A DNA stretch of 63,562 bases, filler included, from Collodictyon triciliatum (taxonomy: Eukaryota), in NCBI GenBank assembly GCA_043381765.1. It is 9 parts of 9 records of this genome, joined end to end, with 100 filler letters (N's around TTAATTAATTAA, not from the genome) between each part and the next. Parts side by side here need not be neighbours in the genome. Positions count along the whole stretch, not along the records: positions 14,186 to 21,163 come from JBHJMP010004135.1; 8 more parts are not named here. One strand, 5' to 3'. Shown here one piece after another: positions 6,974-57,488 of this stretch. Every line of letters starts with the position of its first letter. The stretch's first letter is position 1. Under the pieces are notes generated by a model that saw nothing but the letters and a program-made list of their open reading frames with translations, had not been told where the DNA came from and did no database searches. Position numbers and translations under genes: made by a program.

Positions 6974-7073
6974 NNNNNNNNNNNNNNNNNNNNNNNNNNN
7001 NNNNNNNNNNNNNNNNNTTAATTAATTAANNNNNNNNNNNNNNNNNNNNNNNNNNNNNNNNNNNNNNNNNNNN
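6974..7073. other. Artificial scaffold-joining spacer (N44-TTAATTAATTAA-N44); repeated at 14086, 21164, 28234, 35302, 42368, 49434 and 56499
   Basis: Identical 100-bp all-frame-stop linker about every 7.07 kb; the intervening pieces are 6964-7012 bp and roughly size-sorted. Confidence 0.98.
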
Positions 7074-7394: not shown

Positions 7395-10032
7395 ATGAGC
7401 TGCCCCTTCATTGAGGGGCTGTGCTTCTACCCATGTTTCCAAGCTCGCAGTCGATCATCTTCGGGAGCAATTTCATTTCCGTCAACACCTTCTTCGACGG
7501 GGTCTGCTCCGCCACTTGTGCCTCGAGCTTTCGGCCTCACCGACGCCCCTATTCTTCCAGCAGATTCTCATATGGCTAACGAGTGGGAGGCGATTCTTGA
7601 ATGGATCTGTGATGTAGGTCATCCTGGGGAAAACGAGGCTGTCTCACAAAGCAGCGGTGTACATGACTCTGCTCGCAAATTAAAAGGCCGCCAATCACAG
7701 ATGGTTCGCATGCGAAGTGACTTTGCCTTTGGCGATGTGCTCGGGGAAGGGGCGTTCAGTCAGGTGCTGCATTTTTTCATAATCACGCGCAATAATATCA
7801 GTCAGTTTCGATAGATTACAGAAGGAATTTCTTGAAAACAATCATCACGTACTGATATGCTGGCATATTTTGTATGCTGCTGAATCACATATCATATTAT
7901 ATGTAAAATTAAAAAAATATGTAATTTTCATACAACAATAAAGCATAACTCGCATCTTTTATATGCAGGTAGTTGCGGCCACTGATATTTCAACAAGGGA
8001 GGTATTTGCCATCAAAGTTATTCATAAGCATCGAGTATCACAAGCTAAAAAGGTTGATACAATCAAACGCGAGGCAGTAATAATGGCAAAACTGAGTCAC
8101 CCATATGTGATGCAACTTCACTTTTGCTTTCATGATTCGATAAGCTTTTATTTTGTCTTGAGCTTTTGTGAACAAGGTGATATGTTGCGGTACATCAAGA
8201 AAAACAGTGCTTTGGATGAAATATGTGTCCGATTTTATGCTGCCGAGCTTGTTTCTGCTATTTCGTACCTGCGCTCGCAAGGAATCGTTCATAGAGACAT
8301 AAAACCAGAGAACCTTTTAATTCAGTCGGACGGGCATTTGAAGTTGGCGGATTTTGGGTCTGCAAAGGTATGTAAAAACTCATTTGGTGCAACTAAAAAA
8401 AAAAGGGGAGGCCTTATTCACGAAATTTAATTTTGTATTTGTATTTGTATTTGTATTTGTATTTGTATTTGTATTTGTATTTGTATTTGTATTTGTATTT
8501 GTATTTGTATTTGTATTTGTATTTGTATTTGTATTTGTATTTGTATTTGTATTTGTATTTGTATTTGTATTTGTATTTGTATTTGTGTTGTGTTGTGTTG
8601 CGATTCAACCTAATGTAATATGATTAATATTTTCCTTTATTTTGTTTTCAATTTATCCATATTAACTCTAAGGATTTCAGCATGAATACCAATCAAATGT
8701 TAAATACAAAAAGGATGGTAGAAACAGACAGGAAAGGTTTTCATCCCCTATTATCAAGATATTAATGCAACTTCTAGTCATCTAATACTATTGAAAAAAT
8801 ATATCACAACCAGAGCGAGCAACCTCATTTGTCGGAACTCCTGATTACATGCCTCCAGAAATTATTGAAAATAAGCCGATTGACTATTCGTAACTGCCCT
8901 TTAATACAACGTTAATCATATTTAAAGTGAAAATAGAACCGAAAAGGCATGGGCTCAAACTCATCATCTTTCGCATTATGCATTCCATGTAGGTGTGATG
9001 TCTGGTCCTTGGGTTGTACAATATTCCATATGCTTGCAGGGAAACCACCTTTTCGTTCGGTCAATGAGTTTGTAACTTTTCAGAAGATAAAATCTCTGAC
9101 TTACTCGATTCCAGATGGCTTCTCGGAGCATGCATCTGATTTTATCCGAGGAATATTGGTAACTCACTGTTTACAATATCACCCACACTTCAAATCAAAT
9201 GACATGTATTATGCTCGGGTAAGAAGTAGTGAAATATTGAGGTCTCTTTCATTCATTTTTTATTTGATTAACAGACCTTAGACCCTGGTTCCAGGCTTGG
9301 AGCAAATGATGATTTGGAAAAAAGTCTCGGATCTCATGCTTTTTTTCGAGGGACTGATTTTAGTTCGTTGAGGAGCGTAGAACCACCTTACTTTAGACCA
9401 GCAAAGGGGCTTGGTTTTTCGCGTGATGCGCTCACTTCCCATATCATACCCTCGAGATATGAAGATACTCGGAATTACTCGCAGTTGAGAGACTCAAAAG
9501 AACGTCAAATTAATCACACAACAAGGTTGTTTTTCAGTTACCTAAAAAAAACATAATGAATCTGTAGGGTATTTCATTAGAGTACTTGTTTTCTGAAACA
9601 AGTAGTGATATATTAATAATGATAATTAGGACCTCATGTCTCAAAGTCGGTGAGAAAACTGTTGTCGAAGGAATGATCATCAAAAGGTCCGGTTTATATG
9701 AGAAATTGAGATATTTAATTCTAACAGATCACCCAAGACTATTTTATCTTGACCCGGAAAAAGAGAAGATTCGGGCAGAGATCCACTGGACTTTTGACAT
9801 GTGCTGTATTGAAAGTGGTGATAACGCTCTTGTTCTCGATATGGTTTGTGTATTTCTATTGTAATTAAGACATGCTTGATAGTTCTTTAATGAGAAATTT
9901 TTGTGAGAGTTTTTCCAATCAATACAGGGGCACCGAGTGTATATTTTCTGTACACCATCCCGCATGGCCAATATTTGGAGAAAGCAGATTCTTGAAGCTC
10001 ATTCTACATGGGTATCCAGACAACCAGTCTAA
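7395..10032 (+). CDS. PDPK1: 3-phosphoinositide-dependent protein kinase 1-like (AGC kinase + C-terminal PH domain)
   Basis: DFAFGDVLGEGAFSQV, FAIKVI, HRDIKPEN, DFGSAK, ATSFVGTPDYMPPE, DVWSLGC; PH region KRSGLYEKLRYLILTDHPRLFYLDP; stop TAA 10030-10032. Confidence 0.9.
8432..8586. repeat. (TTTGTA)n microsatellite
   Basis: Intronic tandem hexamer. Confidence 0.95.
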
Positions 10033-10774
10033 CAAACACATTTTTATTCATTTATCGAACGCCATGGCTATCTAGATAAAGTTAAAATCGGTCTATTTGG
10101 ATAAGCTAATGGTACTTTATACTTCAAGACATCCAAGTTTTGAGGCTAGGTGCACAGTTGCCATGTGAATACGATTAATATGTTACTTTCAATTGAATAA
10201 AGGGAGGATATTTTTAAGAAGTCCTTTGATATTACATGACAAATGTGCTCATTTATCCTGTTGCACATATTTTTTTGGTCCATATGCTAATCATTAAGGA
10301 AAAAACGGCAGCTAGCTGACCAAGCTAAATGAGTCAGGCATATGTTCCATCTCATGAGGAATGTATATGTGCCTAACCATCGGAGCAAGGTAAATTGGAA
10401 CCTCACACTCGACAGTGTCTGTGTGCGATGGTGTTGGTGATGAACCAGAATAAGGGAAAGCATGATGGCCTTTTTGATATTTGNNNNNNNNNNNNNNNNN
10501 NNNNNNNNNNNNNNNNNNNNNNNNNNNNNNNNNNNNNNNNNNNNNNNNNNNNNNNNNNNNNNNNNNNNNNNNNNNNNNNNNNNNNNNNNNNNNNNNNNNN
10601 NNNNNNNNNNNNNNNNNNNNNNNNNNNNNNNNNNNNNNNNNNNNNNNNNNNNNNNNNNNNNNNNNNNNNNNNNNNNNNNNNNNNNNNNNNNNNNNNNNNN
10701 NNNNNNNNNNNNNNNNNNNNNNNNNNNNNNNNNNNNNNNNNNNNNNNNNNNNNTTTTTCTTTTTCTTTTTTCTT

Positions 10775-11553
10775 TTACAAACCGGAGAAAATGAGTCGTT
10801 GGGCCGAAACTATAGGCATTATAGACCCGCCGATAGTCAAAAGCTGGAAGCAAGCCCGTATACCTCAGTTACTCCCAAAACACCGTGCCCTACTTCTCAA
10901 TATCTCCAACAGAGAGCTGTGGATGGGTGCGCGTGTAGTCCATGCAGCAACGACCTCTCCAGAATGCACCATGTGCCATAGTGGAGATGACTCTATCGAA
11001 CACACATTTGTGAAGTGCTCTCTTGCTCAAAAAGTGACAGAGTCTACCCACAAGATGCTCTCTGAGCTTGAATTATGCTCTCAACCGGCTCAGCGCGTCT
11101 GACATCCTGTTTGGCCCACAATACCAAATGACCCACGACTCTAGAATACTCTGGACAGTCACAAGGGGACATATGCTGTGGTCCTTATGGAGTGTGCGCA
11201 TTCTCTCGCTCTAATGATTCACTCGAACGAGAAATCCATGTATCCAGGCTTGAAAGCCTCGTTCGATACAGCTTCCTGAACAGCCTGCTGAAACACGCCT
11301 GCATTCTTTGCTACTCTGACCGCAAGCGAAGAGAGATGTGGGAATGGGTCATGCGATATCTCCCACAGCATATCCAACTCCTGCTACCCACGCAACCAAT
11401 CAAACAGTTGGGACGCCCACATGACCAACTCGCTATCACTGATTTCTTTCGCAGTAGCGACCTCTTCACGGCATCACAAAACCCAGAGCCGCAGGTTTTT
11501 CGCACCAGCGAATCCATCCCTGCACGTCAAATTTACATTTAATATACAATAAA
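10775..11553 (+). mobile_element. Degenerate 3' end of an L1/Tx1-like non-LTR retrotransposon (ORF2 C-terminal zinc finger)
   Basis: CTMCHSGDDSIEHTFVKC (zf-RVT CxxC..E+.EH.F..C), then ILFG..., LWTVTRGHMLWSLW; frameshifted; homologous to 50855-51454. Confidence 0.85.
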
Positions 11554-13830: not shown

Positions 13831-14387
13831 TTATGAAACATAGTTGAAAATTAATAATGCAGACACTTTTTGTATATCCTTCTGTTATTGGTTTTTTTTT
13901 TGGTTTTTCTTGGTTTTTCTTGGTTTTTCTTGGTTTTTCTTGGTTTTTCTTGGTTTTTTTGGTTTTTTTGGTTTTTTTGGTTTTTTTTGTTTTTTTGGTT
14001 TTTTTTTGGTTTTTTTTGGTTTTTTTTTGGTTTTTTTTTGGTTTTTTTTGGTTTTTTTGGTTTTTTTTGGTTTTTTTGGTTTTTTNNNNNNNNNNNNNNN
14101 NNNNNNNNNNNNNNNNNNNNNNNNNNNNNTTAATTAATTAANNNNNNNNNNNNNNNNNNNNNNNNNNNNNNNNNNNNNNNNNNNNAAAAAAAAAAAAAAA
14201 AAAAAAAAAAAAAACAAAAAAAAAAAAAAACAAAAAAACAAAAAAACAAAAAAACAAAAAAAACAAAAAACAAAAAAAACCATGAACAAATACACACACT
14301 AAATCAATTGCAATATTCAAATGCATTAAATCGAACATATCACTCTCGAAATATTAGAAAATCGAGCCTTTCAAACTGACTATCCCT

Positions 14388-16813
14388 TTGGCGCACCAAG
14401 ATAATCCCACCTTAAACTTCGACGATAAATTTAATGACATGATTCGACACGAGTATACATATCATAGTTTTCTAAATTTGCAATGTAAAGAGAAAGCATT
14501 TCTCCCCTTCTACGATTCTAAGACATACAACATATTAATTAAAATAGATATGCTGTTCGTTATCTTGAACACCTTGGGGTTAAGGCGAGCAACACAAACA
14601 TATCTATGGTCCTTATTCCATTTCTTTATTTCACTTCTTAGGATTATTTATACCATAACAAAGCCTATATATGTTCTCTGACACATATGTTACTATCTTC
14701 GAATCAGCCACCCTTAAATTTAATTTGTAACCCATTCAACACAGGTAAGGTCTCAGATACCTATCGAAGAAAGTGATGTTACAGCATTTTATCGATCGCG
14801 AGGATGGCTCGCTGATTATCTTCAAATTGTATGTTTGCGATGTGTACTATCATATATGAAGCATGCGGTTTCAAAATAAAATCTTCTCCAACACATAATC
14901 TCACAATTTTTTTTGAACCTTAAGAAACCATCAAACTTGACGAAAGAAAGAAAAGTAAGGCTTCGTGCAAACTCCAAGTTGGTTTCTAATATTTCTGCGA
15001 TAGCAAACGACAAAATTGACCCTCGTGAGGTAATTAAACGAATAAATACTTTTTCATCGCGTGTTTTTATGCCACCAATCATAGTAAAATGAAGTACTTT
15101 TGACTAANNNNNNNNNNNNNNNNNNNNNNNNNNNNNNNNNNNNNNNNNNNNNNNNNNNNNNNNNNNNNNNNNNNNNNNNNNNNNNNNNNNNNNNNNNNNN
15201 NNNNNNNNNNNNNNNNNNNNNNNNNNNNNNNNNNNNNNNNNNNNNNNNNNNNNNNNNNNNNNNNNNNNNNNNNNNNNNNNNNNNNNNNNNNNNNNNNNNN
15301 NNNNNNNNNNNNNNNNNNNNNNNNNNNNNNNNNNNNNNNNNNNNNNNNNNNNNNNNNNNNNNNNNNNNNNNNNNNNNNNNNNNNNNNNNNNNNNNNNNNN
15401 NNNNNNNNNNNNNNNNNNNNNNNNNNNNNNNNNNNNNNNNNNNNNNNNNNNNNNNNNNNNNNNNNNNNNNNNNNNNNNNNNNNNNNNNNNNNNNNNNNNN
15501 NNNNNNNNNNNNNNNNNNNNNNNNNNNNNNNNNNNNNNNNNNNNNNNNNNNNNNNNNNNNNNNNNNNNNNNNNNNNNNNGAAATCCTACTCCTCCATCCA
15601 ACCTGGCTCTGATGGGAATCAGACAAGCAAATCATCCCAGGCGCATGCACCTATATCAGCACGAAAATCAGTTGCATTTGAAGGGGTTTGTGGAACTATC
15701 TTAGATATAACACTCGAAGTGGGTTGCTTTTATTGATAAATAAAAAAATCACATATTTTCATTTCTCATTTGTATTACGCGTAGGATGCTGCGAATAATA
15801 CACAGCCCCAGCCGAATTCAAGTATATCTTAACGAATTTGATAACATTATAACAATAAGAAAGGAAATTATGCTGATGCTAAATACCCCCAGTGACCATA
15901 CTCTCCTCATGATTTTTTTTTTAATTCTTGAATCCAATATATTGTTTTTTTTTAGACCCTCGGATTGATATTATGGAAATAGAAGAGGCCGAAGAGGAGC
16001 TTATTACGACAAATCTAAATGTTGGCGACACATTAGTAACTGACATACAACAAGCATTCATTGATAAATATTCCTTCGATACAATGCAACACAGACTTAG
16101 CGATGAAAACATTGCTGTACTAAAAAAGGAGCTTTCTTCTATACACCAAAGTATAAACTTTAGCTGTCAAATATTTTCATTAGTTTTATTTTTTCTTACC
16201 TATATTTCGTTTCATTTCACTTCACTACACCAATACCGTGTTTTCTTCTGCGCTCCTGCTCTGATATTCCTTCTTATTTCCTAACTATTTGCAACTTCGT
16301 TGCTGTGTAAAATTAAATCTTTTAAATTCAATTACAGCAAGATTCATCGCTATGACCTGTGAGTATTTGTACTGGAAATTCCTTGGAAAAAGAGTACTGG
16401 ACGAACAATCTCAGTATGGAATATCAAGGCCTATTCGCCCTGAAAACCTCCAAAACTATGAGAAGCACTACTTTCTATCCCTGCATCAGGTATTTGTAAT
16501 ATGAAAACCAACCAAATGATTATGGTTCACAAATCCCTTAGTGATTATCCAATCATATTAATGTACATGAATTCAATTATATCGCTACAGAAAGTTGAAT
16601 AATGAACCGCATTCGAGGGTTTTTTTTTATTTTTTTTATTTTTTTCTAATGCTTTCTTTATTCTCCCTACATACTGTAGATTTACAATAAAATCGAGACC
16701 AGAGTCCAGAAAAAGCTAGGACATAAGATAATATATATACCCGTTATTTTACTTATGCTGCGCGTTTCGGTTGAAGTAACTTTCTTCCTTTCAATGTGTG
16801 CTTTCTTTTTTTA

Positions 16814-16844
<31 letters not shown>

Positions 16845-18597
16845 AAATAAATAAATAAATAAATAATAAATAAATAATAAATAAATAAATAAATAAATAA
16901 ATAATAAATAAATAAATAATAAATAAATAAATAAATAAATAAACGGTGTAGGCAAATAATTTATCCGTACTTATCCCTGACCAAATCAAAATGTATTACT
17001 TCGTTCCAGGCTGTTTTTCGAAATAATTTTCCCAGATGGAGCAAATTTAAAGAGGCAGAAAGCATATACAAAGATATGGACTCAGCAATCATATCCATAT
17101 TCGACCCAGAGCAATATATCTTTCACATGAGCACTGCAGAATGTAATTCAACCTTCCATGAAAAACTATTCCGCCTGAAATATAAGCTAGATTCATTCAC
17201 TTGGTCAAATGGATGCGTTTCTAAGAAAACCAATAAACATACTCGATTCCCTTTCGTTGGTGCTCATTTCGAAAATAGCCACCTCAGAAGGAATGATGCT
17301 CTCTGCTGCCCCGAAGCGTTTTCGTGAACGTGGGTTGCAAGGAAAGTACTACTCTACAAGGTATGCCTCTGTTTTCTTCATGCACAGAAGCATCATAATG
17401 TTCTTTCATAACACCAGGAATTTTAAAAGTCAGTGTTGAGGTCTATTTATTTGTCTTCCTCACCTCTATTCCTGTAAGCCCGATGGTTAAATGCCTATTT
17501 GGAACTGAAGCAGTTGCGCACACGCACCAAAAATACTTGCGTTCGATTTAACTTCTCTTTCTTTTTTTTCTTGTAAATAATACCGAAAAGATAAAAAGAA
17601 AGGTGAAGCTATAAGAATATAGATGAGGCGAGGAAATAAAAGTTGAACAAATAAAAAAAAGAAGAAAAGGAAAGAAAAAGAGCCGTACGCATCCCTTTTG
17701 AACATTTTAGATCAATTATCATCTTCTTATATAGGCCCTAATGAGACTACTGAGCGTCTTCCAGACTTCACGCAAGATGAAGCCTCACGAAAACAGTTGT
17801 ATCACCTGACCATCCAAAGATTGCATCCTGACCATTCCAGTCCCCTTCCTTCGTTGGGAAGACCTGCATCAATTGCTAACCTGGGTAAAGCAGGCCACAC
17901 TATCACAATCCGAGGCCCGGATGAACACGGCCTAATGGGCGAAACGACAGGGGATGGAAACGCAAGTCTTGGGGGGTTCGGTGCCGTTGAGATAGAAGGA
18001 AGCCGTGGGAGCCGGTCCAGGCCGCGTTCCTCGGACAGCCGCGTCAGTCGGTCTAGTCGCTCGCATTCGGCGTTATTTTCAAGAGAATCGCTCCATACGC
18101 CGATTGCAGTTATCTCTGATGGGAGCAACTTATCAGTCCCACGCCACGGAATTCCCAAAACCCGCTCCAATATGCGATTGACTGAGCTTGAATCGCACTT
18201 ATCCAAAGTAATCCGTATTTTAATCCAGATATTGGTACCATTCAATCCGGGCTATTCTTTCGTTACTTTTCATTCTTCTTTCTCCAGATATTATCTTTTT
18301 TAAGTTGCATATATTCCTTTTCTTTTTCTTTTTTCTTTTCATCAATTTCTCAATCCATTCATCCATTCGTCACAGTTGGCAAACATGTCCCTGAGTGGAT
18401 GGGGCACCAAGCAAGATGCTGCGAAAAGCGAGGGGGAGGAAAAGGAGGCTTTGGAGAAGGAACACAAGGCGAGAGAGTTGGCCAGTATGGTGGGAGGGAT
18501 TGTAGACCGCATTCCAAGAAACACACCAACTCCCCTCAGCCAGACAAGACGATACGCATCCCCAACACAAAACACCCGAACGCCCACATCCACATAG
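14388..18597 (+). CDS. Multi-exon uncharacterised protein (spans an internal N gap)
   Basis: Spliceable exons such as ARFIAMTCEYLYWKFLG, PVILLMLRVSVEAVFRNNFPRW, IISIFDPEQY, GKYYSTSPMVKCLF; Ser/Arg-rich tail; stop at 18597; no family recognised. Confidence 0.6.
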
Positions 18598-19149
18598 TCG
18601 CAACCTCGCGCGTCGTAGACGAAGGAAAACAAGGAGCCCCACGCAGCTTTCTCCTTCATGTCTTTTCTTATCATCTCTCTTTCATTTCCATTTCTTACAT
18701 CTGAGCTTACATATCACCCATGCTTGCGTGAAAGGAAGGCAGTGCGCATCTCTCATACTGATGAGGTTTTTTAATATTTATATTTGATTGAAAAAACTAT
18801 CAAAAAATAATAGGGAATCGAAGGATAATTCCTTTTAAAATTCATCCAAATATAATCAGATTAAAGTTTTATTTGCCAAGTTCATATCGTGGAAGAATAA
18901 TCCACTTTTTTTTTTTTAAAAAAAAAAATAGAAGTATACACAGAGTAATAAATTTGAAGAGAACTTCTTTCTTTATTCGATTCAAGGGGAGGGATTTTAG
19001 ATTATTTTTTTTTTACAGTCCGACGTAGTTGTATGCGCCTTGGTTGAAAGCAGTGACGCGTGTCGGATAAGGGTGCATGCTGGCTTGGTACGGAAGCTGG
19101 ATTCATGGTCGTCACTATGCGCCTGAGATGGTTGAGAATAATTACAACT

Positions 19150-19199
19150 CTAAAAAGCAGTACCTTGAATCGAATAAAGGAGAAAATCAAACAGTTCCT
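19150..19199 (+). mobile_element. Ultra-short retro-insertion, family A, with degenerate TSD
   Basis: AAAGCAGTACCT + TGAATCGAATAAAGGAGAAAATC + AAACAGTTCCT. Confidence 0.55.
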
Positions 19200-20620
19200 A
19201 ATGATGAGAATATTACGGAAGCTATTAAAAAGGCAGAGTTACGAAGGTTAAAAAAAAAAAATAATCCATCTTCAAGAATCTCGAAATACCGGAACAATAT
19301 AAAGAATGGGCTATAACGCATCTGAATCATATCATTTTCAGTGATATTGTAATGATATCAAATATGACGTCAAAGTCTATCCAAATAAGTACATTCCATG
19401 TCTGATTTACATGAATCGCATTTTTGAGGACATTGGAACCAAACTGTTTCAACCAATCCCCATAAGAACTAACAATTTTTTTATATTCTTCCTTTCAATT
19501 TTGTGCAGGATGGTGAAGATGTTGGCACATAAGAACTAACAATATACCATGTCATATTAGTCTAGATATTGATGTTTGATAGATATACTAGTAATATCTG
19601 TAAAATCATCATTACTGAAGAATATATCAGGATGCAAAGAGACCTATGTGATGATTTCTTTGAAATGAAGAAGAGGGTCTTTCATCAAAGAGACCACAAT
19701 TTTAAATACATGATACAAACAGACGGCTTGGCGGTGTCATTATTATTTGAAAAGAAAGGTATTCTAAATTCAAAATCCAAATATAATCAATCAAAAGACC
19801 GGAGAATATGTTTATATAGATGAGCTTTCCGAAGAGCAGTTATTTATATTAGCGAAAAAAAATAGCTGGAGTGGACTCAGGCAAGTTTAATTTGGTTTAC
19901 ATGGTGGATGAGACAGGTAAGAAATTACGTTACACGACACACCAAAGAATATATGATAGCAAATCTCTTAAAAACCACAAAATACTCTTGCGCGATAAAA
20001 AAAAAAGAAAAGCACAAGGCTTCAGGGATATGCATGGTAACAGATTTTCAAAGTGCTGTTTCTTTTGGTGCCATGACTTTTGAAGAAAATCAGCGGTTTG
20101 AGAGATTAAGAGTATCCTTAATCGATTTAGAGACAGAACTGAGTAAACATAATTCATGCACGGCCAATTATGAAAAATTCGGAAATATGTATCTATTAAA
20201 TCAAGATACCAGATAGAATTTTCCAGATTTTACGAACAAGGAACTTTTCGAAAGATGAGATGGACACAGTATGTTAGTAAACAAAGAAGTGAACACTTGT
20301 TTATGAACCGAATTGAAAAGACATTAGGCAAGGATGTTGTCCTGGCGTTGGAGACTGGAGCAGAAAATCCCCGATAAAACATTTTATGCCACCAATTGGG
20401 AGAGGATTACGAAAAATACTATCCAAACGTGTTGAAACAGTTTTTGTAGATGAATTTAGAACCTCCAAGATGCGCTGCAATTGCAAAAAAAGAACTGGAA
20501 TATATGAAGCCGAAAGGAAGTAAAAAAAGTGTATAGATGTCTCACATGAAAAGAATGCAATCGCTTAGAAAGCAAACAAACTGTATTCTTGACAAGGGAC
20601 TCTAACCAGCGATAAAAAAA
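19186..20620 (+). pseudogene. Fanzor1 (eukaryotic TnpB/Cas12-family RNA-guided endonuclease), 5'-truncated and frameshifted
   Basis: Across frames: YDVKVYPNKYIPCLIYMNRIFE..KLFQPIPIRTNNIPCHISLD; YMIQTDGLAVSLLF (TDG ~19719); RuvC-I IAGVDSGKFNLVYM (D 19874); LRYTTHQR; ETELSKHNS; FYEQGTFRKMRW; GDWS..KHFMPPIGRGLRK; RuvC-II VDEFRTSK (E 20452); Zn-finger CNC..CLT*KEC; RuvC-III TRDSN (D 20598). Confidence 0.9.
19461..19543 (-). mobile_element. 51-bp 5'-truncated LINE 3' end (family B) inserted into the Fanzor ORF, perfect 16-bp TSD
   Basis: CATAAGAACTAACAAT at 19461-19476 and 19528-19543. The insert's reverse complement, ...CCATCCTGCACAAAATTGAAAGGAAGAATATAAAAAA, matches the LINE tail at 51405-51454. 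Confidence 0.85.
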
Positions 20621-20660
20621 AATATATTCAACCAAGTTCTTTTAATCCTTCATAAAATGC

Positions 20661-20793
20661 ATACACCTTCCTCTAAAAAACAGGCTGTTGGGTCTTTCCT
20701 GGCAGCCTTCACCACTATGCAATCTTTGTGAAAAAAGTGGTGAGACCTTGCATACTAGCGCACCAGGTTTACCAATCGAAAGATTTGTGTATA
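20661..20793 (+). ncRNA. Putative Fanzor omegaRNA scaffold / transposon right end
   Basis: Lies directly 3' of RuvC-III. Hairpins 20683-20707, 20709-20743 (TCACCACT/AGTGGTGA) and 20774-20785 (AATC-GAAA-GATT); pseudoknot ATGCAA (20717-22) with TTGCAT (20748-53). Confidence 0.65.
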
Positions 20794-20879
20794 CCCCTTC
20801 TAGTAATACAATACTTGACGAAAACTAAAATCATGCCAAAATATTATTTATATATTATTATCTCCTTGCTGTATAAGAA

Positions 20880-20950
20880 GCATTGTTGGTGTAGTGGCAG
20901 CATGATAGCCTTCCAAGCTGTCGACCCGGGTTCGATTCCCGGACAATGCA
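20880..20950 (+). tRNA. tRNA-Gly(TCC)
   Basis: Acceptor stem GCATTGT...ACAATGC, anticodon arm ATAGC-CTTCCAA-GCTGT, T arm CCGGG-TTCGATT-CCCGG, TTTT terminator. Confidence 0.97.
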
Positions 20951-21370
20951 TTTTGCCTGCCGCGACTTTTTCCTCAAGGCGTGGGACGCCTCTGCCCCTG
21001 CAACCATTAAAAAAAAAACCCCCCTCCGCGGTCGCAATCGCCTATGCCATCGTCAGACCAGAATAAATCTTTTTCTTCTGTTCTTGGTACCCATTGATTT
21101 TTATTTTTATTTTTATTGTATAGTTCTCGTCAGGTCGGATTGTATTTACAAGTACAGCGAACGNNNNNNNNNNNNNNNNNNNNNNNNNNNNNNNNNNNNN
21201 NNNNNNNTTAATTAATTAANNNNNNNNNNNNNNNNNNNNNNNNNNNNNNNNNNNNNNNNNNNNTTTTATTTTTGTTTTGTTTTTATTTTTGTTTTGTTTT
21301 TATTTTTGTTTTGTTTTTTTTTGTTTTTTTTTTGTTCTTATCTTTTATTCATATTTTTGTGCCCATAAGG

Positions 21371-28130: not shown

Positions 28131-28436
28131 CTTCAAAAACAAAAACAAAAACAAAAACAAAAACAAAAACAAAAACAAAAACAAAAACAAAAACAAAAAC
28201 AAAAACAAAAACAAAAACAAAAACAAAAACAAANNNNNNNNNNNNNNNNNNNNNNNNNNNNNNNNNNNNNNNNNNNNTTAATTAATTAANNNNNNNNNNN
28301 NNNNNNNNNNNNNNNNNNNNNNNNNNNNNNNNNTCTCTTTCTCTTTCTCTTTCTCTTTCTCTTTCTCTTTCTCTTTCTCTTTCTCTTTCTCTTTCTCTTT
28401 CTCTTTCTCTTTTTCTTTTTTCACCTCTTTTCTCGC

Positions 28437-35292: not shown

Positions 35293-35401
35293 TACATTTA
35301 TNNNNNNNNNNNNNNNNNNNNNNNNNNNNNNNNNNNNNNNNNNNNTTAATTAATTAANNNNNNNNNNNNNNNNNNNNNNNNNNNNNNNNNNNNNNNNNNN
35401 N

Positions 35402-42367: not shown

Positions 42368-42659
42368 NNNNNNNNNNNNNNNNNNNNNNNNNNNNNNNNN
42401 NNNNNNNNNNNTTAATTAATTAANNNNNNNNNNNNNNNNNNNNNNNNNNNNNNNNNNNNNNNNNNNNTGTTTTTTTGTTTTTTTGTTTTTTGTTTTTTGT
42501 TTTTTGTTTTTTGTTTTTTGTTTTTTGTTTATTGCTTTTTGTTTATTGTTTTTTGTTTATTGTTTTTTGTTTATTGTTTTTTGTTTTATGTATTTTTTTT
42601 TGTTTGTTTATTGTATACGAATATATTGATTGACTCAATAAACCATCTTTTCGGTACAG

Positions 42660-49378: not shown

Positions 49379-49533
49379 TCATTACCGCTTGTTTTTTTTT
49401 TTTTTTTTTTTGCTTTTCTTTTGAAAAAAAAAANNNNNNNNNNNNNNNNNNNNNNNNNNNNNNNNNNNNNNNNNNNNTTAATTAATTAANNNNNNNNNNN
49501 NNNNNNNNNNNNNNNNNNNNNNNNNNNNNNNNN

Positions 49534-50646
49534 ACCGACCCGATTCCGAGACTGCGTATTCCCAAGGGCGTTCGTGCGGTCTTTATTCACGCTGTCTGCC
49601 CGTGGGGCGCTGCCTGGGGAACCAAGGAGGGCCACAACAACATCGACATGCTAAAGAATATCAACGGTATCTACACCGTCTCTGCAAATCATACATCCCC
49701 TGTTCTTGTTGACCTTTTTGATACCATGAATATTCGCAATGTTGGAACTGTCGAGGGCTTCTTTTCGGCCTTCCAATACTTTATGACTGTGCAAAACGGA
49801 CCCGATGGCGAGGCACTTCGCAAGGAGTTGTCATACGGCCAGAATCAGCGCCAGATTGGCCTCTCGTACTATGGAACAGAGGCAACCTGGGAGACTCTGA
49901 CCGTACGTCAAATTGTCAAGGAGCATCTCACGGGCGCCTGCAAGATTCTGCTGGCTGACCTTCACACGGCTGCTGGTAAGTATGGAGACTGGTTCATAGC
50001 TGGGCATGATGTGGGGTCTGGTGACCTTGTAGAGGAATGGAACGAAAAGTCTGGGGCAAAGGCGACTATCGAGCCCCTCTATAAGGCTGGTGTCGGAACA
50101 GACCCGTGGCCTTTTTACGAGTTTGTGCGTGACTACTATCCCAACGCCGACTTTGTCCGTGTTGTTTGGGAGGCTGGAACTTTCCCACAGAGCCTGTATG
50201 AAACAAACATGCTCATGCTTGTGCACTGTCGACACTACGGAGACATCAAGGTCAACGAACCGGGCTGTGAAGATTTTTTCTCAACACTCGACCCTGCTTC
50301 CTGGACTGGGCCTTGCTGTAAGTTCCATCACGAGCGTTTGAATGAATTCTTTAATCCTCACAAAGGTACCTTCAGCGATTGGCCCGAGCTTGTTTACAAT
50401 GCAACGGCTGCACCTTTTTCTGTGATGAAGTACGGACTGGAATCGATGCTTGCCACCCAGGACCAATGCCCTTCGACGCCCATCCCAAAGACCAACAATG
50501 GTGGTGACGACGGAGATGATGACGACATATCCATGGGCGAGGCGGTGATGATATCTCTGCTCTGCATCGCCATCGTTATCGGCATCGCCATTCTTGTTGT
50601 GGTTGTCACCAGAAAAAGCAGCTCAAAGGATAAGCCGCTTCAATGA
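49534..50646 (+). CDS. DUF2817-like (M14 zinc carboxypeptidase-fold) protein with a C-terminal transmembrane anchor; intronless, 5' partial
   Basis: Frame open from the scaffold start: FIHAVCPWGAAW..NNIDMLKN, LSYGQ....GLSYYG..ATW, ADLHTAAGKYG, WEAGT; hydrophobic helix AVMISLLCIAIVIGIAILVVVV followed by RK. Confidence 0.7.
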   Translation, partial: TDPIPRLRIPKGVRAVFIHAVCPWGAAWGTKEGHNNIDMLKNINGIYTVSANHTSPVLVDLFDTMNIRNVGTVEGFFSAFQYFMTVQNGPDGEALRKELSYGQNQRQIGLSYYGTEATWETLTVRQIVKEHLTGACKILLADLHTAAGKYGDWFIAGHDVGSGDLVEEWNEKSGAKATIEPLYKAGVGTDPWPFYEFVRDYYPNADFVRVVWEAGTFPQSLYETNMLMLVHCRHYGDIKVNEPGCEDFFSTLDPASWTGPCCKFHHERLNEFFNPHKGTFSDWPELVYNATAAPFSVMKYGLESMLATQDQCPSTPIPKTNNGGDDGDDDDISMGEAVMISLLCIAIVIGIAILVVVVTRKSSSKDKPLQ

Positions 50647-56440: not shown

Positions 56441-57488
56441 GTATTACTACATAAATTTACATACATAAATTTCATTTCATGAGAATAATAACATACAANN
56501 NNNNNNNNNNNNNNNNNNNNNNNNNNNNNNNNNNNNNNNNNNTTAATTAATTAANNNNNNNNNNNNNNNNNNNNNNNNNNNNNNNNNNNNNNNNNNNNGG
56601 CGGACAAAGCAGTCTTCGTCTTTGAAGAGTTCGTTCTCAATCGCACTTTTTGATCGCGGTACGTCAGCCACGAATGATCGATCGGGAGGTTCCGTTTCCC
56701 GAAGCAAGGTCGACCGTGCACGAGGCTGACTGGCGCTTTGGTGGGTCGAAGTCGAAGAGTGAGGTTCCTGTCCAGCCCAAAAGTGCCAAGACTGTCAGTC
56801 GCATGCCACCGCATCGAAACTCGGTCGGTTCTGTTTGCTCTGGGTGAGGGACAACGCTCCATGTTTCTTCTCAGCAGGCTTCACCCGAGAAGAGAATGAG
56901 CACGGCAACAACGCAGACAACACAGTTGAATGGCGAAGTGGCATCGCCTTGTTCTCTCTTGTTGCATCGCCTTTGCAGCACATGCCCGAAAGAGTACAAG
57001 GGCATCGCGTTGAAGACTGAATCATCATGTCTCACACGCTCGTTTCTTTGTTCTTTGTTCTTTTTTTTATTTCTTTTTCTTTTCATAATTATTTTTTTTT
57101 GATGATTATTTGGCAACAAGTCAACAAAGAGAGATTGCATGAGTGTGGTGACAACACGTAAATTACGAGAAAAAAACAATGCCTGGCATTAGAATCCATA
57201 GATGGTGATAAGTTGCTTTTGAGTCGATATCACAGATGGTAAAACCGTTTTAAGGAAAGAAACCGGACTTAGTTCATGGTGCAGTATTTCAACGAAGCAA
57301 GAAAGGAAAAGAAAATCTAAGAGGAAAAGCGAAGCTAAGGGAAATGATTAAGGAAAAGGGTAATTGAATGGTTGCGTCAATATTCTAAGTCACTCATCCC
57401 TAACCCCATCACCTTAAAAGCAACAATCAATAACTTCAAAAAAAAAAAAAAAAAAAAAAACTGCCCGTATCCAAACAGCGGTGTTCTC

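Follow-up and report, generated by a model that had tools for sequence, protein, structure and literature searches.

The window analysed here is a 63,562-nucleotide (nt) stretch of the Collodictyon triciliatum genome assembly GCA_043381765.1. On its plus strand, the positions 19185-20731 very probably represent a dead, 5'-truncated copy of a Fanzor1 gene, which belongs to a DNA-transposon family present in many copies in a freshwater eukaryote. Between 19.2 and 20.7 kb, short open reading frames (ORFs) were found in all three phases of the plus strand, and taken in order they give a series of motifs. The motif IQTDGLAVSLLF is situated in the ORF 19566-19823 and FRKMRW in the ORF 20174-20377. 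VDSG holds the RuvC-I aspartate codon, VDEFRTSK holds the RuvC-II glutamate codon, and GDWS...GLRK and RD.N are also present. An earlier note on this DNA had described a hidden Fanzor1 remnant at this place. In the ORF reading all the motifs were located where that note had placed them, and its coordinates for the three catalytic codons (19874, 20452 and 20598) proved exact, each of these codons surviving.

To identify the coding pieces, a word-index search was made with a 68-amino acid (aa) piece (20317-20523). It retrieved two proteins, one of which, P0002, is an intact 648-aa metagenomic protein encoded on a 2610-nt contig. The same piece searched at 'near' lengths found nothing. Comparison of P0002 with the window by tblastn gave matches in three frames (E 1e-58), all of them within 19247-20713, and nothing better than E 1.5 was found elsewhere in the window. 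A frameshift-aware alignment placed residues 159-640 of P0002 on 19185-20713, with 287 of 474 residues identical (60.5%). Nearly all of the family proteins which were searched against the window matched it at E<=1e-3 (148 of 152), and all 430 high-scoring segment pairs fell inside 19000-20900. The motif series and the family matches are far beyond chance. The family is represented by 3147 representative library proteins at E<=1e-3 and by 537 at E<=1e-30.

Pfam analysis of five pieces from the window gave only OrfB_IS605 at E 0.02, which is below the cut-off, and two of them (68 and 76 aa), compared with PDB sequences, had no match at E<=1. As the window pieces are recognised neither by Pfam nor by PDB sequences, recognition of the relic runs through P0002. 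Pfam analysis of P0002 itself gave just E 0.11 to Cas12f1-like_TNB, and the clade is not recognised by it. Against PDB sequences, P0002 matched the Fanzor1 proteins of Guillardia theta (GtFz1, E 2.1e-28), Parasitella parasitica (PpFz1, E 2.7e-24) and Spizellomyces punctatus (SpuFz1, E 3.7e-23), and these were the sole significant matches. P0002 has the N-terminal REC/WED half, and its residues 4-415 align to SpuFz1. A model of P0002 was built with AlphaFold2 from 40 relatives (predicted local distance difference test score, pLDDT, 85.2; predicted template modelling score 0.83). The seven best PDB fold matches of this model were all Fanzor1 with template modelling (TM) scores of 0.65-0.79 (SpuFz1 0.74/0.79), while the scores were 0.21/0.28 to Fanzor2 (9b0l) and 0.20/0.31 to ISDra2 TnpB (8h1j). 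By the proxy of P0002, in sequence as well as in fold, the family is Fanzor1 rather than Fanzor2 or TnpB. The claim of a decayed Fanzor1 gene therefore stands, as the window copy is 60.5% identical to a protein which is Fanzor1 by both measures. In the profile and structure check which the earlier note had proposed, P0002 was placed in Fanzor1 by sequence and fold, but the window pieces alone stayed below the Pfam cut-off.

The conserved positions of the known nucleases were then located in P0002 and in the window. The TDG of P0002 is matched by a TDG in the alignment with each of the three solved Fanzor1 proteins. In the PDB sequence alignment, its D-P-G aligns on D-P-N of SpuFz1, and its N-E-F-R-T-S aligns on the D-E-F/Y-R/K-T-S of PpFz1 and SpuFz1. 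In SpuFz1, D383, N385, E541 and D606 bind two magnesium ions (PMC10432273). The relocated RuvC-II glutamate is described by Jiang et al. (PMC10530073), and, as the earlier note had read it, this residue is kept at 20452 beside the zinc finger and aligned to the PpFz1/SpuFz1 motif. The motif of the Fanzor/TnpB superfamily, D-X(125,275)-[TS]-[TS]-X-X-[C4 zinc finger]-X(5,50)-RD (Bao and Jurka 2013, PMC3627910), is formed in P0002 by D364, T558-S559, C562/C565/C587/C590 and R603-D604. The window keeps the D, TS and RD and has lost two of these four Cys codons. The window copy retains 12 of 13 family-invariant and 18 of 22 near-invariant residues. G521 and E555 of P0002, both invariant in 40 of 40 family sequences, are kept at 20350 and 20452, and the conserved Gly of GDWS and the relocated Glu are G500 and E536 of SPu-1-1p (Bao and Jurka 2013, PMC3627910). 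Also invariant in 40 of 40 family sequences is the Pro which follows the RuvC-I Asp, and the window copy has Ser at this place.

P0002 is thus alike in sequence and fold to the Fanzor1 proteins of S. punctatus, G. theta and P. parasitica (PDB 8gkh, 9ceu-9cez, 9cer-9cet, 9cf0-9cf3). It has the same TDG, D-P-x of RuvC-I, Glu before the TS and zinc finger, and RD, and the window keeps these codons. It differs from the solved proteins in an identity of just 18-21% and in an extra low-confidence segment of ~33 residues found in its lineage, while the window copy differs from them in being truncated and broken. IS200/IS605 TnpB (ISDra2, 8h1j) and Fanzor2 (ApmFz2, 9b0l) share the same RuvC and zinc-finger core, D...[TS][TS]xx-C4...RD (PMC3627910), but their fold match to P0002 is much weaker (TM 0.20-0.31), and in canonical TnpB the RuvC-II Glu is situated elsewhere (PMC10530073). 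The positions of all the features are collected in Table 1.

Table 1. Features of the Fanzor1 relic and of its immediate surroundings, in positions of the window.
Feature	Position	Strand	Remark
Inverted-repeat element, 209 nt	18971..19179		31-nt arms, 81% complementary, 147 nt apart; abuts truncation point
Fanzor1 pseudogene, 5'-truncated	19185..20731	+	~residues 159-648 of P0002; stop TGA 20729-20731
67-nt frame-breaking insertion	19477..19543	+	perfect 16-nt direct repeat 19461-19476 / 19528-19543
TDG codons	19719..19727	+	P0002 T312, D313, G314; family alignment
RuvC-I Asp codon (19874-19876), then Ser	19874..19879	+	aligns to SpuFz1 D-P-N
Lineage-specific coding segment, ~33 residues	20000..20112	+	in P0002 (~408-441) and P0047; absent from 6 other relatives
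GDWS motif	20350..20361	+	Gly family-invariant; family alignment
Relocated RuvC-II Glu codon (20452-20454), then RTS	20452..20466	+	aligns to DE(F/Y)(R/K)TS of PpFz1/SpuFz1
Degraded zinc finger	20473..20558	+	first Cys CGC (Arg); frameshifts 20485, 20522; third Cys TGA 20547-20549
RuvC-III Arg-Asp codons	20595..20600	+	Asp codon 20598-20600; reading frame, family alignment
Non-coding tail to end of family similarity, presumed right end	20732..20792	+	fall of X6 depth

The frameshift-aware alignment to P0002 distinguished 13 frame-breaking events in the relic, which are 12 small indels (19263, 19349, 19571, 19636, ~19766, 19855, 19997, 20181, 20348, 20485, 20522 and 20607) and the 67-nt insertion. 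The insertion had been delimited exactly by the earlier note. The direct repeat bounds it, and it is skipped in other copies of the family, as contigs of the sequencing run X6 have joints there which omit 67, 70 or 72 nt. The change of a Cys codon to TGA at 20547 had also been given at the exact coordinate. This TGA reads TGT in all 16 covering X6 contigs (20549 A>T) and also in X2 and X3, showing that the site was formerly a Cys codon. Three other claims had to be corrected. The CxxC..CxxC is not intact, since the first pair of the zinc finger reads R-C-N-C. The gene does not end at 20620, as the frame continues to its stop ~110 nt further 3'. The second 'insertion', at ~20005-20115, is not damage, because it is in frame in the intact proteins P0002 and P0047. 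This segment of ~33 residues is situated between RuvC-I and the following helix, is common to the window copy, P0002 and P0047 only, and is predicted to be disordered (pLDDT <50 at residues 416-438 of P0002). As far as the alignment tells, the insert marks the host-side clade.

The first ~158 codons are missing along with the start, and the copy begins at residue ~159. None of the 152 family proteins searched against the window gave a match upstream of 19265. Seven X6 contigs diverge from the window at 19184, and in their upstream continuation H-F-V-K-R-L-L-R-F, read by hand, corresponds to residues 149-157 of P0002. The window copy is a fragment in which the large N-terminal REC/WED half of Fanzor1, present in P0002, is not found, and it cannot encode a functional protein. 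The inverted-repeat element next to the truncation point has its own lower depth in X6 (22-83) and may be a small non-autonomous element. Two other causes of the breaks were considered and rejected. Introns do not account for shifts of 1-2 nt, at which no sequence intervenes, and GT...AG ends are missing from the 67-nt insert. A Euplotes-like code, in which TGA is Cys and +1 frameshifting occurs at stops, does not fit either, as no in-frame stop is situated at the shifts 19855, 20485 and 20522 and other copies have TGT.

The lesions are real, because contigs identical to the window were found in independent runs. X1 and X3 are freshwater-metagenome runs of different studies. X1 holds identical 151-nt contigs for 20185-20335 and 20497-20647, and X3 holds one for 20076-20226. 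Together they span the breaks 20181, 20522 and 20607 and the TGA. These two runs hold just 0.14-0.17 of the sampled words and are thus an unlikely source of the assembly. In the word search over sequencing runs, every run held less than half of the sampled words, the share was small in 16 of the 22 rows listed, and no RNA run was among the holders listed. The identical contigs also place the organism, or this exact sequence, in fresh water.

The relic is one copy among many. Run X6 holds 309 contig pieces of the family at 80-100% identity to the window copy, many of them without its lesions. Their identities are widely spread, with 24 pieces at >=99%, 77 at 95-99%, 117 at 90-95% and 91 below 90%, and 29 of 30 bins are covered. 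The summed depth in X6 was 135-860 over 19192-20727 and 22-83 left of 19192. On the 3' side it fell from 285 (20664-20727) to 47 (20728-20791) and 4.9 (20792-20855), with 0 from 20856. The X6 copies show indels at or beside the break sites (+C 19571, +A 19643, +A 19771, +A 20348, -1 20486, -1 20607), and for at least four of these indels the direction is one that restores the frame. Taken together, the pieces look like a repeat family whose numerous members have decayed to different degrees. As its pieces cover 80-100% identity within one run, the family was mobile, in agreement with the earlier claim of mobility in this lineage. The further proposal that intact copies may exist is suggested only. 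Other copies lack several of the lesions and their frame extends further 5', but none of the X6 contigs showed a close copy at full length. The genome of S. punctatus has 19 full-length Fanzor copies, 42 loci in all including partial ones, and 134 ORF-less derivatives (Saito et al. 2023, PMC10432273). Beside such a mix of full-length, partial and ORF-less copies, a truncated relic in a multi-copy family is the expected state.

Relatives of the family were looked for by a pattern scan with the 8-sequence alignment A2 over IMG/VR and JGI metagenomes. A relative is encoded in 368 of 449 candidate stretches of IMG/VR and in at least 530 of at least 597 candidate stretches of the JGI metagenomes. 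A scan of viral contigs with P0002 alone gave 36 pattern matches, none of which was a relative. Among the matches listed, the best were 44-47% identical over nearly the whole of P0002, and one of them is on a 254-kb contig of a giant-virus metagenome-assembled genome. Giant-virus contigs, on which the nearest labelled relatives are found, carry numerous intact relatives with 38-47% identity. The ORF is intact, with 573-651 aa, in all the 160 fetched loci, viral and metagenomic (L001-L160). Directly upstream of the Fanzor1 gene, L001 and L004 have a divergent 343-346-aa transposase with helix-turn-helix (HTH) and DDE_3 domains, and the flanks of both loci encode an mRNA capping enzyme and the small chain of ribonucleotide reductase. 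This arrangement is that of the known two-gene Tc1/mariner-Fanzor1 element. A transposase-like match was present within the fetched flanks of 57 of the 160 loci. When the 5' and 3' flanks of the relic were compared with the 160 loci by blastn, nothing was found, and the coding part alone matched.

In having an HTH and DDE_3 transposase beside the Fanzor1 gene, these relatives resemble the two-gene elements of Tc1/mariner type with Fanzor1 described from giant viruses and protists (PGv-1, PUl-1; PMC3627910). The window differs from such elements in that it lacks a transposase remnant, inverted repeats that could be paired and a match to the 3' module of the relatives, and its clade is separate from the sampled viral copies.

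The 3' end was analysed for a possible guide RNA. The region 20660-20800 folds at -40.9 kcal/mol (z -3.52) as a single sequence, and none of 200 shuffles was as stable. A conserved 3' module was observed in 149 of the 160 loci, at most ~260 nt past the Fanzor1 stop. It ends in one and the same short word, like AAAGGTGTAA, after which the sequences diverge. Judged from the sequences, this module of the relatives is probably the omega-RNA scaffold together with the right end of the element. In the sister group, the DNA of the module stays conserved even in loci with an earlier end of the frame (L003, L005), and one hairpin in the module of the relatives shows paired changes, judged by eye. The model R1 was made from 52 relatives as a sequence-only model, without base pairs, since RNAalifold found none on the alignment A4. 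Its best match in 19000-21160 (19224-19279, minus strand, E 0.0045) is rich in T and was read as low complexity.

The window consists of unrelated contigs of ~7 kb joined by artificial linkers, and no linkage can be inferred across them. Each linker has 100 nt (44 N, TTAATTAATTAA and 44 N), and they are found at 6974-7073, 14086-14185, 21164-21263, 28234-28333, 35302-35401, 42368-42467, 49434-49533 and 56499-56598. The pieces between them are unplaced contigs in the order of their length, which falls steadily from ~7012 to 6965 nt. This concatenation matters for every other finding on the window. The contig of the relic is 14186-21163 and includes a gap of 472 N. A tRNA-Gly(UCC) gene is situated at 20880-20950 on the same strand, 149 nt after the stop of the relic and ~88 nt after the presumed end of the element. 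The argument which the earlier note had drawn from host genes on the same scaffold fails, as the window is a concatenation and this tRNA-Gly is the sole other recognisable gene on the contig. The ORF 17647-18300 gave no homologue in the word-index protein search. Other contigs, not linked to the relic, contain a zf-RVT domain (a zinc finger associated with reverse transcriptases; 10377-11099, E 2.9e-07), situated beside a gap of 270 N, and a protein-kinase exon (7942-8427, E 2.4e-37), both of eukaryote type. Another one contains a 370-aa frame of DUF2817 (M14-like peptidase) at 49534-50643, with a G+C content of 44-46% compared to ~35% elsewhere. The nearest protein-atlas clusters of this frame are all labelled bacterial, with scores of <=0.80, and say nothing about the host. 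The frame may be a transferred gene, or its contig a contaminant.

For the ancestor of the relic, we infer the transposon type, the guide RNA and the past nuclease activity as follows. The intact ancestor would have been an RNA-guided double-strand DNA endonuclease of ~650 aa. Its front half would have been REC/WED, and it would also have had a zinc-finger NUC domain and a split RuvC domain in which the RuvC-II glutamate was relocated. Like the characterised Fanzor1 proteins, it would have performed omega-RNA-guided cutting of double-strand DNA, dependent on a target-adjacent motif (PMC10432273). By analogy with the closest labelled relatives, the carrier was probably a cut-and-paste element of Tc1/mariner type (DDE_3), and by analogy with the relatives the guide RNA would have been encoded at the 3' end of the gene. 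In work on TnpB, the presumed role of the nuclease is the cutting of transposon-free target sites so that the element gets copied back.

Several observations weigh against the reading of the locus as a dead copy from a mobile Fanzor1 transposon family. Five of the 12 small indels are at runs of seven or more A (19263, 19855, 19997, 20485 and 20522). At four of them, 19263, 19855, 19997 and 20485, no identical independent contigs were found, and these could be assembly errors. The type of X6, RNA or DNA, is a guess. No transposase remnant was found in the window (best tblastn E 0.86), and no inverted-repeat pair brackets the relic, of which the 5' end is gone. For this reason, the Tc1/mariner assignment is taken from relatives which are only 38-47% identical. 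The R1 profile found no match at 20680-20800. Besides the relic, no recognisable protein gene was found on 14186-21163, and 11 of the 11 other ORFs tested had no Pfam family.

Even with a dead protein, the 3' end of the relic could yield a usable guide-RNA scaffold for an intact Fanzor1 acting in trans, like the 'ghost' loci of S. punctatus. The omega-RNAs of the ghost loci function with SpuFz1 (PMC10432273), the region 20660-20800 is more stable than all its 200 shuffles (z -3.52), and the family similarity stops at ~20792, as expected of a right end. This fold, however, comes from a single sequence and has no covariation, and the 3'-module profile of the relatives has no match there. The region also carries indels compared to other copies (20623, 20632, 20674). 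At the ghost loci of S. punctatus, the two inverted repeats and a functional omega-RNA are retained (PMC10432273), whereas the guide RNA of the window is putative and pairable repeats are absent. We consider such a surviving function of the relic quite improbable.

The relation to giant viruses was analysed in two trees, both of them unrooted. In a FastTree phylogeny of 195 rows, the window copy grouped with P0002, P0001, P0004 and P0047, and this group was inside a 19-row set which includes four viral contigs (support 99). A tree of 35 rows with a better model, which omits the other 160 of the 195 rows, kept the 5-row clade (99). This clade contained no viral member, and its placement relative to the viral clades had a support of only 50. 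The link to giant-virus elements is real at the family level. The earlier suggestion of an arrival from giant viruses is neither shown nor refuted. Relatives are encoded in 368 of 449 IMG/VR stretches, but the clade of the window copy has no viral member and a weakly supported place among the viral clades.

A rival explanation assigns the contig to a giant-virus genome, either integrated or free, and regards the relic as a viral Fanzor1 copy instead of a member of a host family. Giant viruses can carry tRNA genes, and the stop of the relic is followed by a tRNA-Gly after 149 nt. It is also on giant-virus contigs that the nearest labelled relatives are found (368 of 449 IMG/VR stretches encode relatives), and L001 and L004 are flanked by the capping enzyme and the ribonucleotide reductase small chain. 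Yet this copy has 13 frame breaks while all 160 viral and metagenomic loci are intact, and a spread like that of the 309 X6 pieces, from <90% to >99%, is what an old repeat family shows in a cellular genome. The lack of a viral member in the 5-row clade of the window and the lack of any Pfam family, viral or otherwise, in the 11 other ORFs of the contig point in the same direction. A viral origin of the contig itself is therefore very unlikely.

It was also considered that the gene is intact in the organism and that the frameshifts are errors of assembly or sequencing. The five indels at A-runs are of the kind this explanation expects, and a 234-nt X2 contig across 19789-20025 differs from the window by 3 gaps. 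Seven indels are nevertheless outside homopolymers, and the breaks 20181, 20522 and 20607 as well as the TGA are crossed by the identical 151-nt contigs of X1 and X3. Assembly or sequencing errors also do not take the form of a 67-nt insertion, of changes from Cys to Arg and from Pro to Ser or of a loss of 158 codons, and an intact gene is extremely improbable. For a bacterial TnpB from a contaminant speaks the sole Pfam hint for the window pieces, OrfB_IS605 at E 0.02. Against it, the family is Fanzor1 by fold and sequence with far weaker matches to TnpB 8h1j (TM 0.20/0.31) and to Fanzor2, and the contig has a G+C content of 23-38% with long low-complexity runs. The PDB sequence and fold comparisons already contradict this explanation, which is practically excluded.

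With the dead Fanzor1 copy at 19185-20731, a known family has yielded another ordinary molecular fossil. Many protists, fungi, animals and giant viruses have already been found to carry Fanzor1 genes and decayed copies of them, and a further example by itself changes nothing. A bolder reading is that the relic marks a eukaryote-resident Fanzor1 lineage with its own ~33-residue insert, apart from all sampled giant-virus copies. That lineage would still be active in a freshwater microbe with hundreds of copies, some of them intact, and its truncated copies would be guide-RNA-only 'ghost' loci feeding the intact nucleases, the guide here coming from the sequence just upstream of the tRNA-Gly. Taken as a whole, this reading is unlikely. 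As Pfam is blind to the clade, routine annotation will miss it. The relic flags a host-side clade related to the abundant Fanzor1 transposons of giant viruses, which is useful to searches for new compact nucleases and is raw material for tracing virus-host exchange.

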